A stretch of DNA of 64,000 bases from assembly GCF_041146345.1 (NCBI RefSeq), contig NW_027191404.1:2232001-2296000 (forward strand), read 5' to 3'. The notes under the pieces are model-generated. The model saw only the letters and a list, made by a program, of their open reading frames with translations, did not search any database and was not told the DNA's origin. Made by a program: the position numbers and the translations under genes. Position 1 is the first letter of the stretch; each line of letters opens with the position of its first letter. This document shows positions 16,799 to 30,198 of this stretch, one piece after another. Origin of the DNA: Neodothiora populina. Lineage: Eukaryota.

Positions 16799-18500
16799 AT
16801 GGGTACTGGAAATGCTGGACAGACTGTCCAGTCATCTACCACTGTCCCAAGGATCCTGATTATTGGTGCGGGCTCTCGTGGCAATGCCTATGCCCGAGCC
16901 GTGCACCAGTCTGGACAAGGTATTGTCGCTGCCGTAGCGGAACCCATCGACTACAAGCGACAGCTATTGGGATCCAAGTATATCTGGCCTGGATCCGAAC
17001 CCCAGCCAGAACATGAATTCTCTGACTGGCGAGACTTTGTGAAGTGGGAGACGCAACGGAGAGAACATGCATCCGCCGGCCTCGAAGTCCCTGAGGCGAT
17101 CCATGGTGTCTTTATCTGCGTGCTTGATGAGCAACACGTCGAGGTTGTCACTGGTCTTGCACCTTTCAAGCTGCACATACTCTGCGAAAAGCCCCTTGCG
17201 ACAACATTGCGTGACTGCCTGGATATCTATAGATCTATGCTCCCAACATCCTCCCAAGACATGCAAAAGGCAGTCTTTGGCATCGGACATGTCCTGCGTT
17301 ACAGGTTGGATTGCCTCTACTCATTGAGCTGAACCCGAGCGCTGATGTCGTAGTCCACATAATATGCTGTTACGAAAGTTGGTCCTTGAAGATAGAGTGA
17401 TTGGGGATGTGATGTCAATCGAGCACACAGAGCCTGTAGGCAATTGGCATTTTTCTCACTCATACGTCAGGTAAGTACCTTACCATACTACAATCGCACG
17501 TCTCCCGTATAAGCCTCATGCCTCGCACAGAGGCAACTGGAGAAAAGAATCGACTACCGCTCCCTCCTTGCTATGTAAAAGTTGCCACGATATCGACTTT
17601 CTCTTATGGATGCTTTGCTCCCCGCCGAAAGACTCGACAGCGCCAGCCCACATACCTTCATCACTGAGCTCCACAGGATCTCTCAAACAATTCCGAAGAC
17701 TCAGGAAGCCCGCCGCAGCCGGCGACGCAACAAATTGTCTGAAATGCAACACCAGAGACACCTGCGTCTACAGTGCTCCACGTATATACTACGACAAGCA
17801 ACTAGCAAAAGGCAACACAGACTGGCCCGTCAACATCGTCGAGCCAGAGATCGAGTCCTGCTACATCACCCAGGGAGCAGAAGCCGCTAAAGAAATGCTA
17901 TTCAACAGCCTCGGCGCAGATTACGACGCGCAGAAGACTCCAAGACGACACATCGAAGCGCGACCATGGTACGGCCGCTGCGTATGGGAATCAGATAACG
18001 ACGTATGCGACGACCAATTCGTGACCATAACCTGGGACGACGAACCTGCGACCTGCCCCTCAACGGGCCAAGAAACATCACCACTACACTTTGCCAAAAC
18101 CGCCTCCTTCCACATGATTGCCCAGACCGAAAAGCAATGCGAGCGCCGCGGCTGGATCTACGGCTCAGAAGGCGAAATCTCGTACGACGGAACCACAATC
18201 ACAGTCTACGACTTCGCGACGCAGGGGTTCACGCGCCACGACCCGCCTCGTCGCGGAGGCGGACACGGAGGAGGCGACGATGGGCTGGCGACGCAGTTTT
18301 TGAAAGCTATCGATGCGGTGCTGAATCATGGCGTCGGCGTCGAAGAGGCGCAGGCTGAACATCTGGGGTGTTCCCTCGAAGAGGTCGTTAGGAGTCATGC
18401 TTTAGTCTTTGCTGCCGAGGAAGCTCGTAGGGACAGGAAGGTTGTTGATTGGAAGGATTGGTGGGCGCAGAGTATGAAGACGGTCACTGCAGATGCTTGA
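16799..18500 (+). CDS. Gfo/Idh/MocA-family NAD(P)-dependent oxidoreductase (3 exons)
   Basis: IIGAGSRG Rossmann motif, HILCEKPLA, GHVLRYSPHN, HSYVRGNW, KSCHDID, GHGGGD. Confidence 0.9.
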
Positions 18501-19027
18501 GAGATGATCTTCCGACGGACCCCCAGTTGCTACCCAGTCTACTCTACTGCGCGACTACTCGAGGATTGCTATGGCAAACCCTTCTCAGTAGCTTCGGCAC
18601 TCTGATGATTACTTTCTGTGGAGTCGATTGCTCAAATGCCGCAACATACCTTAGTTTGATAATGATGACTTACGACCCTAACATACCACTTTTGACGTGG
18701 CATTGTTCTGATGACTGATCTTGATTATTGCGGTACACAACCATCACCTACAGCGCGACAAAACAAGGATGAGTTCAAGCCGATGTAGAGTGCTTATATG
18801 AGCGAAACGCATGTAGCCATTGAATTAATAAGAACGAACCTGAATTGTTTCTTTCAATTACATAAAGTATATATAGCAACGAGCTGTCCCAACGATCAGA
18901 GGGTTCGTGAGTGATCAAACTACACCCATCACTTCACCGTTATTCACAAAATAGTAGCCTGGTTATAACCGTCAGTCGTTGCTCAAGAATACATGAGCGC
19001 GAGAGAAAGAGGTGATATATAAGGAGG

Positions 19028-19125
19028 TGATTCAGAGATAGGGACTGAGTCCCGTGCAAGCTATTCCGCAGCAAAAGAGTACAAGTCTTCTCGGCCTGGT
19101 GCCAGCTGGTGTATCATCATATAAA
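19028..19125 (-). ncRNA. Box C/D snoRNA in a non-coding intron (18959-19170); D' guide predicted to methylate the 18S G562-equivalent
   Basis: Minus strand: donor GTACGT (19170), box C ATGATGA (19120-19114), guide GCTGGCACCAG-G then D' CCGA (19094-19091), box D CTGA (19035-19032), branch ACTGAC and acceptor CAG (18961-18959). The guide is an 11-nt perfect complement of conserved 18S CUGGUGCCAGC. Confidence 0.8.
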
Positions 19126-19212
19126 GAGAGGAAACGAGGGAAAAAGACAAAAAAATTGGTTAAAACGTACCTGTCAGTGATGGATCCAGACGAAACATGA
19201 CAAAAAGCGTGG

Positions 19213-19390
19213 TGATGTCCGCACCCCTGCTCAAGGCCAATCTTGACGACGGGTCGGCAAGACGATATGAGCAGTCTTTGGGCCCGAAAGCTCGCCAAAG
19301 CCGATGCGAAAGATATCAATATCAGCACTTCTCGGCGCAGTCTCAGCTATGGGTATGAGCTTGGACTGCAATTTGACATCCGTGCTAGGG
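19213..19390 (-). ncRNA. Box H/ACA snoRNA, snR85/ACA5-like (18S Psi1181-equivalent)
   Basis: Hairpin 1 has stems AGCAC/GTGCT and GCAGTC/GACTGC. Its pocket strands GTCAAATT and GCCG pair with 18S CGGC-UU-AAUUUGAC. H-like box ATATTG lies 14 nt from the pocket top; the second, branched hairpin closes with TCGCATC/GGTGCGG followed by ACA (19218-19216). Confidence 0.75.
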
Positions 19391-19493
19391 TATGTAAGGC
19401 GAGACGAAGGAATGGCAAGAGGACTGGGGGTCAGTAAAAGTCGAAAGGATGCATGTCGTGTACCGGTATTGTATTATACTAGGGATAAGTTTA

Positions 19494-21635
19494 CTACATG
19501 TCGTCTTCCGCATCATCCTCGGCAGCAGCTTCGCGGTCTTCGAACTTCATAAACTCGTCGCCATTGCCGCCAACGATACGCAGCCATGTCTGTTTGACAT
19601 TGTCGAGGACACTGTCGTTAAAAGCCAGATCCAAGGGAGCGTTCGGGAAACGAAGAATGTTGCCATTAGCTTCGTCAGCGACATTTGGTGAATGGAAGTT
19701 CGAGCTCTGTTGGTATTGCAACGTCCAGAGCACTTTGACATCTGATCCTTGTGTAGCGATCAATTTCTTGATGGCCTTTTGGAGTAACTCGAAGGCTTTG
19801 TCGCCAGTAAGAGCTATACTAGCGTAAAGAATACCTGTGACATCGACGTTAGCTTCTAGCTTTGAGAAGACTGAGTAGTAGTCGAGTTGAAGTGTGCAAA
19901 GTGGTTGCAGATCAGGTTGTCAGAGATGTTTGATAATCAAGGTTATTCAGGCAATGTAGATAAGTATTCGTATTCTTTGGTTCATCCTTGCATTGCCACT
20001 TTGCGGAAGATTGGAGGATATGGAATCGGCGTTTGAACTTACATTGACCCTTTGGACACTCGCCAGTGTCACTAGTGTGTGCTACAACATGCACAGGCGG
20101 AGTGGTTATTGAATCTGCATCCAAAGAGCTGGATGGAAAGACAACAACTGCGCCAGCTGGAGTGACACCACCCTCAGCTGTGACCGGGAAAAGTGAGGGA
20201 AGATCTGCAGACACAATCGAAATGCAGCGCGATATGACAGATGACTCAGTCAAAGTAGCGGCTTCGCCAGGATGCTCGCTACTGGCAATAGGCAAGTCAT
20301 CATCGGTCCCAACAACGAAGTCTGCTTTGACAGTATCTCCGCCATCTAGACGGATGTAAAATTGTCTCTGCGGCTCAGCAGGTTTTGATGTCTCTTGAGG
20401 TGCCGCTGCAGTCTCAGTGGGCTGGCCTGCATCTTCGGAGTCGATGCTGTATCCAGCTTCAGCCAAGAGCTGCTCCAGGGATTGCTCTTTGATCTCTGTC
20501 TCAAGAGTCTCGAGGCTTTCCTCGTTGGTGGGGACGAACTCATTGGCGCCAATAGCATCAGAGACTTCTTGAGAGATATCTTCCTGATCCATTTGAGGAC
20601 GTGGGACTTCTTCGACATCGCGGTCTTCAATCGATTCAATGCCTTTGCCAAGCACATAGACAGCACCCCCGACAGCGCAAGCTCGACATGCGACTTGAGC
20701 GAGCTCGGACAACCCGCCCCACTTAGGGATGACAGCGCCAAACCCTGGACCGAACATTCCGATGGACCGTAAATGTCTCGCGATCTTAGGCACAGCAAAG
20801 CCAGTAGTGGTGTTCTGGGGCATGTTGGGGCTCAAAGTCAATGCCAGCAAGGGACCATGTGACGCGACTGGGAGATTGAACTGCTGAACCAAGAAGTCGG
20901 GGAACGGGGTGTCTTGGTTCGTCTCCCAGATCTCGGGTCTCTCTTCATATGCAGCAACGAAGCGAATGAATTTCATCAAGGAGCCTTTCGACTTCAATGA
21001 CAGTGATTCATCGGCGAATATATCTTCCCGACCGTTAGGCACTCTGAGAAGTCTTTGCTGCTCTTCATCTACCGCTGCATCTGCACCACGCTCTCTTGAC
21101 CCACCACGGTCATAGACGAACCAGCTACCAACAGCTTGAAACTCAAGCTGCTGATGAGCTCTGGACGACACCAAGACGGGTAGCAGAGCTGACCGGGTGT
21201 AGAGCAGAGTTGGAGCTAGGGAGAGGTTGTACGAGCGGGATGATCCCACCGAGGCCTTGCCTACAACATCTGGACGATGGTATGAGGCATTGCTGAAAGG
21301 TGAACGGGAGTTTGCTATCGCTTGGTCAGCAACAGGTCTAGGCCGCGATGAACGAAGCTCCTCTTCTTACCTGAGTTGACAATCTCTGCAAATTGCTCGG
21401 CTTCATCGAGACTTAGTGCGGCCTCGGAGCCGCCGTAGACATCATTCTTGTCTATATGGAGGACTTTCTTCCCAGAACGGGACAGAGCACTTCAAATCAC
21501 ATGCTGCGTCAGTCAGAACCAATCACACATGGATGTTATGGTTCTTTAACAAGAGACATACAGTGCAAGCAGAGACTGCTGGATTCCTGTGCCAGAAATG
21601 AGAATATCCCAGTCTGTGCCTTCGAGTGTGTCCAT
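19494..21635 (-). CDS. MRS6: Rab escort protein / Rab geranylgeranyltransferase component A (GDI family), 4 exons
   Basis: WDILISGTGIQQSLLALALSRSGKKVLHIDKNDVYGG; SRSYNLSLAPTLLY; PKWGGLSELAQVACRACAVGG; ECPKGQC-ILYAS; acidic tail. Confidence 0.9.
19908..19992 (-). ncRNA. Intronic dual-guide box C/D snoRNA (snR62/U34-like) in the last MRS6 intron (19835-20042)
   Basis: C box AGGATGA (19988-19982), D' CTGA (19950-19947) preceded by CTTATCTACATTG (antisense to 25S CAAUGUAGAUAAG), C' TTGATTA, D CTGA (19915-19912) preceded by CATCTCTGACAA; flanked by the 9-bp inverted repeat GCAAAGTGG/CCACTTTGC. Confidence 0.87.
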
Positions 21636-29051: not shown

Positions 29052-30198
29052 AGATAATCTGGCTCAGATTTTGAATGAAACAGGACGATGAGTTGGTCCA
29101 CCACATGCTGGTATCACGGAAAGGACTGCAGGTCGGAGTAGGCGGAAGGGTTTCTGCCCCTGTGGCATAGATCTACGACAACCAGGGTCTACCCCGTTGT
29201 CGCCAGACTTGAGTAGACCATCATTGTCCGCTGCATGATCGGACCCTACGATTGTGTCATGTATAGCATGAGAAAAGCGCTGTGAAAGACCTACTGCCCG
29301 GGTCCACCTGCAATGCAAGCAGGATCTATGAAACCTGGCGGGGTCCAAATGTCACCAATGGCCACACTGTCTGAAGGGTGGCGAAAAGTCGACAAGGTGG
29401 CTATTGCACCATCTACGGTCTTTCCCAAAAGCATATCGGACAGTCGTCAGGAGCATAGGACAGACTCCAGCGAAGCGGTTACAGCTTTGCATCATTAAAA
29501 CCCTTTGGCCTCAGAGTGTGCTTATGCGACATGGAGATCGTACCAGCTTCTCGGCCCAATCCGCCGTAAGTTGCTGGACAGCTATCCTGTCTCTAAGATC
29601 TATTTATTTGGGGGAGGATCCACCCCAGAAGAATCCTTCGGAAGGGAAAAAGCCAAATCACTGTTGCGATGACATGAACCTGGCAGCTTGCATGTGTTCA
29701 CCTCTCTTCCCGGGCTCTGAGAGCATCTACATTCCTATCACTAGAAACTGCGCTGTAGTAGCGATCGACTCCTGCGACTGGCTTTCGTTGCGGATGTCAA
29801 GATCAAGGAAACCCCGATGTAGAGCCTCCTACGAAGGCCCATACCCGAGATCAAAAACATATGACATGGAGGCTAGTAGCGTAGGCAAAGCAATGTTCAA
29901 TCTCTTGAGTTTTATAACCATAGGAAAGTGGCGTCTTACGGTCTCTAGAGCTGCTCCGTCTTCCGTCCTGATGGCTGTTTGGGCTGACTCCAAGCTAGAG
30001 AATGGCGCGTCAGAGTCCAGTCCAAGGCAGCGCGCTCCTTCCTTGGACGTGATATAAGACTTTCCCACTCCAGCACCCCCTTTTTCCACAATCCAATTGT
30101 CCCCTCCTCGAGCGTGCATTCTTCTTCTGTGAAATGTCTCGTGCGCCTGTTTAGTAGCCTTCCTTTGTTCTCGCCTGCCTTTTTAGTCCTCCGAAATC

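Follow-up and report, generated by a model that had tools for sequence, protein, structure and literature searches.

Which small nucleolar RNA (snoRNA) genes lie in and behind the Rab escort protein gene MRS6 of Neodothiora populina (Dothideales), and does the MRS6 transcript carry them? The locus lies in a stretch of 64,000 nt that was analysed as a whole (the window; NCBI RefSeq assembly GCF_041146345.1, contig NW_027191404.1, positions 2,232,001 to 2,296,000), and all coordinates given here are those of the window. A preliminary description of this DNA had claimed three snoRNA genes of mixed class (box C/D, box H/ACA and again box C/D) within 1.1 kb on the MRS6 strand, in a span (18959-20042) that runs from the 3' splice site of an intron downstream of the gene to the 5' splice site of its last coding intron. 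Rfam matches, conservation and identity to the Neurospora crassa snoRNA Nc ACA17 placed all three where they had been described. We consider it very probable that they are three functional guide snoRNA genes, in and behind the Rab escort protein gene, and we slightly favour MRS6 transcripts as the source of all three.

The host gene and the C/D snoRNA in its last coding intron

The MRS6 coding region (Rab geranylgeranyltransferase (Rab GGTase) component A; 19494-21635, minus strand) consists of four exons (21635-21562, 21489-21371, 21314-20043 and 19834-19494) and ends with a TAG stop codon at 19496-19494. The 441-aa main exon matched PF00996 (GDI) with an E-value of 3.5e-11, and the gene product showed 100% identity to P0001, a protein of 601 aa from N. 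populina with the UniRef name 'Rab proteins geranylgeranyltransferase'. Since P0001 reads ...GECPKGQC|ILYASIALTG..., positions 20042 to 19835 must be removed from the transcript. These positions form the last coding intron, which is 208 nt long (GTAAGT ... GCTAAC ... CAG, minus strand). Behind the stop codon a non-coding intron of 212 nt (GUACGU ... ACUGAC ... CAG) was found at 19170-18959, also on the minus strand.

Splicing of both introns was observed directly. Sequence run X2 shares its sample with the genomic run X1 and is on record as 'DNA?', yet its contigs are spliced, where X1 gave unspliced sequence; X2 is presumably derived from complementary DNA (cDNA). One X2 contig of 4150 nt (record 5) covers 21489-21371, 21314-20040, 19831-19170 and 18957-18300 and continues for about 1.4 kb. 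The joints 21371|21314, 20040|19831 and 19170|18957 skip 56, 208 and 212 nt, respectively, and every skipped part reads CT..AC on the plus strand, that is, GT..AG on the minus strand. Therefore, the two introns to which the preliminary description had assigned its C/D snoRNAs are really spliced, the first of them in agreement with P0001. The piece between them (19831-19170) was retained in the contig as exon sequence, continuous with the MRS6 coding sequence. Runs X3 and X4 gave only short identical pieces, with nothing informative on the snoRNAs.

The 208-nt intron contains a box C/D snoRNA of the Nc CD22 / snR62 / U34 type (19992-19906, 87 nt, minus strand), with a C box AGGAUGA (19988-19982), a D' box CUGA (19950-19947), a C' box UGAUUA (19939-19934) and a D box CUGA (19915-19912). 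The guide upstream of the D' box (19969-19952) has the equivalent of Um1888 in the large subunit (LSU) ribosomal RNA (rRNA) as its predicted target, and the guide upstream of the D box (19928-19916) has Um893 of the 18S rRNA.

Conservation of this snoRNA was established in 63 loci encoding relatives of MRS6, which had been collected from metagenome contigs by protein-guided scanning. At the same codon position as in the window, 49 of the 63 have an intron of 177-235 nt with the snoRNA; nine other loci end before the site, four have no intron, and one (L061) has an intron of 68 nt without a snoRNA. The four intron-less loci (L002, L013, L015 and L022) appear to be cDNA, derived from transcripts; L002, for example, has 588 residues in approximately 1740 bases.

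The window and 36 of the 39 distinct locus slices were aligned (alignment A2, 37 sequences; L007, L038 and L043 were omitted as near-duplicates). Invariant blocks were GATGA in the C box, GAATAC-TTA-CTACATTG in the D' guide, C-GA in the D' box, TG..A in the C' box, TCTGACA in the D guide and CTGA in the D box, and every sequence had the internal boxes in the form C[U/C]GA (D') and UGxxGA-like (C'). The sequence flanking the snoRNA was not conserved. Conserved guides and boxes in 36 related sequences, with flanks that are not conserved, exclude chance for the intronic snoRNA, and for this element the expected conservation of boxes and guides over their surroundings holds. The terminal stem is built from different sequences in different lineages (4 bp in the window); the flanks of the snoRNA pair over 3.81 bp on average, against 2.88 +/- 0.18 bp with permuted partners, and none of 500 permutations reached the observed value, a figure that is not a probability because the rows are related. 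One further block attracted attention. GAAUAC, with which the D' guide begins (19969-19964), is invariant in 37 of 37 sequences, yet it is unpaired with the LSU beside the target; it may make an extra contact elsewhere.

For intronic C/D snoRNAs of vertebrates the optimal distance to the 3' splice site is 70-80 nt. In 36 distinct introns of our set the distance from the D box to the next exon, measured by script, was 68-86 nt (median 72), and in the window it is 77 nt. Splicing-dependent processing of intronic C/D snoRNAs calls for such a fixed distance, a point that is likewise made in a survey of N. crassa snoRNAs (PMC2780460). The most divergent locus with the snoRNA (L050) has best named relatives that are only about 50% identical (Phyllosticta). 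The snR62-type snoRNA in the last MRS6 intron is an old and widespread pairing in filamentous ascomycetes.

Targets were sought in rRNA from eukaryotic ribosomal DNA (rDNA) pieces with a conserved 18S motif, in which Rfam recognised a complete 18S (L093) and LSU positions 1-1889 (L097); the scan was anchored on the fifth nucleotide upstream of each D or D' box. Complementarity of the guides to rRNA was found directly. The D' guide pairs with LSU around U1872 (13 bp with one G-U pair; next best 9 bp) and the D guide with 18S around U893 (12 bp with one G-U pair; next best 7 bp). Two properties of the scan speak against the guide assignments: the rRNAs are of fungal type and come from contaminant fungi, with the LSU covered over 1-1889, and 11 of 300 random 20-mers from the window scored at least 11, so that a single guide match has p ~ 0.04 when taken alone. 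The strength of the target case is thus the agreement with known sites together with the conservation of the guides, and no single match. In a review table (PMC8307265), yeast Um 25S-1888 is assigned to snR62 and Gm 18S-562 to snR40. U34/snR62 is one of the snoRNAs whose origin has been dated back to the last eukaryotic common ancestor.

Two results count against a functional snoRNA in this intron. In the Rfam scan of 18400-20400 (E <= 10) no model matched it, including snR62 (RF01205) and U34 (RF00147). Furthermore, its C box departs from the consensus RUGAUGA: the window has AGGAUGA and the nearest sampled relative (L001) AAGAUGA, whereas the 35 other aligned sequences have T at that place, mostly as AUGAUGA. 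The G for the first U of UGAUGA could have impaired the snoRNA and left a mere intron relic. We regard this as very unlikely, because the GAUGA core, the guides, the D' and C' boxes, the invariant D box CUGA and the 4-bp terminal stem are all intact, the distance to the 3' splice site has been kept and no other copy of the snoRNA was seen in the window.

Two snoRNA genes behind the stop codon

The second C/D snoRNA lies within the 212-nt non-coding intron, as had been described, and was identified as Afu_190 (19122-19031, 92 nt, minus strand), a snoRNA of the Nc CD43 / snR40 D'-guide type. It matched Rfam family RF01498 over the full model length (1-100) with 56.7 bits, against a gathering score of 35; the E-value of 2e-8 excludes chance. 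The Rfam model of snR40 gave 26 bits only. Between the end of the Afu_190 D box and the 3' splice site there are 73 nt. The D' guide GCUGGCACCAG, which forms the duplex of Nc CD43, pairs with 18S around G558 (12 bp with one G-U pair; next best 7 bp), the equivalent of yeast Gm562. For the D guide no convincing target was found in 18S and LSU 1-1889, the best pairings being 9 bp (LSU A1529) and 8 bp (18S A862).

The genomic assembly of X1 breaks in the core of Afu_190. A contig of 69 nt corresponds exactly to 19050-19118 and has a depth of 66, against about 33 in the flanking contigs, and a 44-nt contig branches off at 19118 with another sequence. The pattern points to a recent duplication, with an identical core at a second place in the genome; judging by the loose letters, the other copy would have a variant C box.

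Between the two introns, in exon sequence of the spliced contig, lies a box H/ACA snoRNA of approximately 175 nt (19387-19213, minus strand), an orthologue of Nc ACA17. The preliminary description had placed an H/ACA fold about 100 nt after the stop codon, and the element begins 106 nt after the TAG. It has the architecture hairpin-hinge-hairpin-tail (z-score of the whole element -2.0). The 5' hairpin (z -2.5 when folded alone) has a closing stem UAGCAC ... GUGCUG and an upper stem GCAGUC/GACUGC. An ACA triplet (19218-19216) follows directly on the closing stem of the element, and the H-like box is 14 nt from the top of the pocket, inside the rule of 14-16 nt (PMC2780460). Its first 21 nt, UAGCACGGAUGUCAAAUUGCA, are identical to those of Nc ACA17, and there is close similarity in the 3' pocket strand and its stem (GCCGAGAAGUGCUG in the window, GCCGAAGAUGUGCUG in Nc ACA17), in a comparison made by eye with the supplement text. 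Such an identity to the start of a cloned N. crassa snoRNA excludes chance, within the limits of a comparison by eye.

The pocket of the H/ACA snoRNA fits the consensus of snR85 (AUGUCAAAUU ... GCCG), and the 18S string CGGCTTAATTTGAC is complementary to it. The pairing joins GUCAAAUU with AAUUUGAC and GCCG with CGGC, which gives 4 + 8 bp around an unpaired UU (18S CGGC-UU-AAUUUGAC, positions 1174-1187 of the 18S in L093). Judged by its sequence, this predicted target would correspond to yeast Psi1181, the site of snR85.

Several features of the H/ACA element count against its function. In the hinge AUAUUGAUAUCU no 6-mer fits ANANNA; the best candidate, AUAUUG (19322-19317), is at the expected spacing and misses the final A. 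The 3' domain, closed by CGCAUC/GGUGCG, is branched, folds no better than shuffled sequences (z -0.98) and has no clear pocket. The snR85 model (RF01240) scored 20.4 bits, against a gathering score of 37, and aligned only the 5' hairpin, with identical pocket letters. In addition, the authors of Nc ACA17 gave another target for it, 18S Psi1733, with a weaker pairing of 4 + 5 bp (PMC2780460). With the further fact that the element was not found at this place in any relative, the H/ACA could be a decaying or non-functional copy that is transcribed as untranslated region (UTR) and assembles no small nucleolar ribonucleoprotein (snoRNP). This is unlikely in our view. The stem of the 5' hairpin and both pocket strands have been kept with respect to Nc ACA17, a northern-positive RNA from a different fungal class (PMC2780460), the spacing of 14 nt from pocket to box and the ACA triplet are intact, and the three-way 3' domain resembles, by eye, that of Nc ACA17.

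Rfam thus bore out the preliminary description in part: Afu_190 scored above its gathering threshold, the intronic snoRNA matched no model and the snR85 match to the H/ACA stayed below the threshold. That the three sets of motifs are chance matches and encode no snoRNAs at all has next to no probability. It is true that C/D and ACA boxes are short, and the C/D-like motifs on the plus strand at 18600-18715 (see below) proved unsupported. However, the E-value of Afu_190, the 21 nt shared with Nc ACA17 and the best target matches, which fall on known modification sites, all oppose chance, and the invariant guides within variable flanks in 37 sequences refute it.

The absence of the H/ACA and Afu_190 from this locus in relatives was established directly. 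In a motif search that allowed at most 1 mismatch, none of the 63 loci had the Afu_190 guide or the pocket motif of the H/ACA downstream of MRS6, and blastn of the relatives gave no match wholly downstream of the MRS6 stop. Rfam, run at the gathering threshold on 28 of the 63 loci, recognised no snoRNA family and just one transfer RNA (tRNA) and one 5S rRNA. The intronic snoRNA is present in 49 loci, the trio in no sampled relative. Since the H/ACA and Afu_190 are absent near MRS6 in the sampled relatives and located elsewhere in N. crassa and Aspergillus fumigatus, they joined MRS6 in the Neodothiora lineage; as far as these sequences go, the trio is lineage-specific.

The 5S rRNA gene mentioned above (L056:1686-1805, minus strand, 83.6 bits) lies approximately 270 nt downstream of the MRS6 relative. 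Two further candidates in the window were rejected. The plus-strand motifs at 18600-18715 (CUGAUGA ... AUGAUGA ... CUGA), behind a convergent oxidoreductase-like gene, matched no Rfam model, showed complementarity to rRNA that did not exceed background, and are probably chance. A match to snoZ267 at 29239-29307 (plus strand) reached 26.7 bits where the gathering score is 43; C and D boxes are missing from the sequence, and the match is due to chance.

Transcription and processing of the cluster

The anatomy of the locus and the families of its snoRNAs suggest how the three RNAs would be made. Both C/D snoRNAs would be released from excised introns and protected by snoRNP proteins, the snR62/U34-type snoRNA by splicing-dependent processing from the last coding intron. 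It would then guide 2'-O-methylation of the U1888-equivalent in the LSU and of U893 in 18S, and Afu_190 would guide the 18S G equivalent to yeast Gm562. The 5' pocket of the H/ACA would serve the 18S site that is pseudouridylated by snR85 in yeast (Psi1181). The H/ACA would have to be cut or trimmed out of exon sequence, by which that copy of the transcript would be destroyed. The accumulation of mature snoRNAs of 87, 175 and 92 nt, the rRNA modifications and a single transcription unit are what we infer.

The preliminary description had left it open whether MRS6 hosts the cluster or abuts it, and one spliced RNA contig spans the MRS6 coding sequence and the entire cluster region. On balance we slightly favour that the H/ACA and Afu_190 come from long or read-through MRS6 transcripts, so that the MRS6 pre-mRNA would be a host of three snoRNAs with an intron in its 3'UTR. 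The competing explanation, in which MRS6 hosts the intronic snR62-type snoRNA only and a second, non-coding host gene directly behind it contains the H/ACA and the Afu_190 intron under an independent promoter, is possible and in our opinion somewhat less probable.

Several points tell against a single unit driven by MRS6. The motif TATAATA (19478-19472, minus strand) precedes the 5' end of the H/ACA by 85-91 nt and is a possible candidate for a promoter element of the downstream unit, to judge from its letters. The X2 contig also extends into the convergent plus-strand gene (stop at 18500), whose 3' end is probably overlapped by the exon sequence after the non-coding intron (18300-18958, minus strand; contig piece 18957-18300, continuing about 1.4 kb further). 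Because contigs merge overlapping transcripts, as this one merged the convergent gene, its continuity is no proof of a single molecule, nor of a start or an end. A separate host gene is also in line with the situation elsewhere: 16 of 20 N. crassa H/ACA snoRNAs are intergenic, Nc ACA17 among them, and clusters there lie in non-coding hosts (PMC2780460); Afu-190 is listed as intergenic in A. fumigatus; and MRS6 of the relatives lacks both elements. Against it, the 106 nt from the stop codon to the H/ACA leave little room for a 3'UTR, a polyadenylation (poly(A)) site and a promoter, and a single spliced contig leads without a break from the coding sequence past the stop codon into the downstream unit.

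If the downstream part is driven by MRS6, the stop codon of the spliced mRNA would be followed, 324 nt further on, by an exon junction. Where fungi possess an exon-junction complex, a junction in such a position is a mark for nonsense-mediated decay, as in many snoRNA host transcripts. A wider proposal is that MRS6 was an early host of the snR62-type snoRNA across filamentous ascomycetes and was extended in Neodothiora to a polycistronic host of three snoRNAs of mixed class, whose transcript yields either snoRNAs or stable mRNA, since the mRNA would be lost through H/ACA processing or through nonsense-mediated decay. We hold this proposal to be rather improbable. If it were true, the design of the gene itself would set secretory capacity against ribosome modification.

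The preliminary description had gone further and suggested a coupling of Rab prenylation to rRNA modification, which is speculation. Its sole part that follows, from the anatomy, is the co-expression of the intronic snoRNA with the MRS6 pre-mRNA. Yeast Mrs6 has been implicated in the control of Sfp1, a regulator of ribosome biogenesis, in a preprint (bioRxiv 10.1101/2022.12.02.518855).

A separate observation concerns the 5' end of the gene. Small contigs derived from RNA showed two alternative joints for the first MRS6 intron (21490-21561), skipping 72 nt and 58 nt, respectively, with 21562 as the common acceptor side. The 5' part of MRS6 thus seems to use alternative splice sites.

Comparison with known snoRNAs and their hosts

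For a newly sequenced Dothideomycete, the analysis contributes three snoRNA genes that had not been annotated, together with their predicted targets, and it brings out a widespread snR62-type snoRNA of filamentous ascomycetes that is missed by current Rfam models. The last MRS6 intron is a stable home for this snoRNA in a non-ribosomal host, with intron length and distance to the 3' splice site narrowly held. The two other snoRNAs, of which one may be a recent duplicate, arrived behind this gene in a lineage-specific manner, and the case could serve for studying snoRNA mobility and the assembly of host genes. Our literature search combining snoRNA, Rab escort protein or MRS6, and snR62 found no description of MRS6 as a host. 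MRS6 was absent from the passages of PMC5824354 that matched the searched terms, and the supplements of that paper, which give genomic locations, may bear on the point; PMC3596301 mentions none of the three snoRNA families.

The closest counterpart of the intronic snoRNA is Nc CD22 (GenBank EU780946), an intron-encoded homologue of snR62/U34 whose D' guide CUUAUCUACAUUGU is directed at 26S Um1866 and whose D guide is directed at 18S Um893 (PMC2780460). The D' guide CUUAUCUACAUUG is identical in the window, the conserved LSU site is the same (Um1866 in N. crassa, Um1888 in yeast), the second guide is directed at 18S Um893 in both, and both snoRNAs are intron-encoded. The host gene of Nc CD22 is not named in that survey (PMC2780460). 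Likewise, the guide in the window fits the conserved LSU Um of the snR62 / U34 clan (CL00055), and the target string is present in the LSU. The window snoRNA differs from these relatives in its C box AGGAUGA and is missed by the Rfam models of snR62 and U34. Yeast snR62 is not known to be intronic.

Afu_190 shares its D' guide with Nc CD43, which is also intronic and is directed at 18S Gm559 (PMC2780460). The A. fumigatus paper predicted Gm557 as the target of Afu-190. The location differs: the published position of Afu-190 in A. fumigatus is the intergenic space from Afu4g11320 to Afu4g11330, the latter (AFUA_4G11330) an Aha1-domain gene, whereas in the window it lies in a non-coding intron behind MRS6.

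Nc ACA17 is an RNA of 189 nt known from cloning and northern blot (PMC2780460). The window H/ACA has a similar three-way 3' domain, by eye, and differs in its H box (AAAUCA in Nc ACA17, AUAUUG in the window) and in its setting. Nc ACA17 is intergenic and on another chromosome than Nc CD22 and Nc CD43, whereas the window H/ACA is exon sequence of a spliced transcript behind a coding gene. The N. crassa orthologues of the trio are thus spread over chromosomes I, II and VI (PMC2780460).

The preliminary description had taken most snoRNA hosts to be ribosome/translation genes or non-coding hosts; placements like those in the window have been described in N. crassa, and the three snoRNAs belong to known kinds. 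Intronic C/D snoRNAs in N. crassa have protein-coding or non-coding hosts, UHG-like hosts carry clusters, and H/ACA snoRNAs in the 3'UTRs of protein genes are represented by Nc ACA10 and Nc ACA16 (PMC2780460). Afu_190 is an Rfam family, and for the two others orthologues have been published, namely Nc CD22 and Nc ACA17. The window resembles the UHG-like clusters of N. crassa in having one C/D snoRNA per intron and a snoRNA within host exon sequence. It differs in that all six N. crassa clusters contain C/D snoRNAs only, whereas the window combines both classes and attaches them to a protein-coding gene; mixed C/D and H/ACA clusters are cited for plants and trypanosomatids (PMC2780460). The trio therefore consists of new members of known snoRNA families in a host arrangement that is well supported and fairly ordinary. 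Mildly new are the mixture of classes in one unit, its attachment to a protein-coding gene and the very stable home of the snR62-type snoRNA in the last MRS6 intron.

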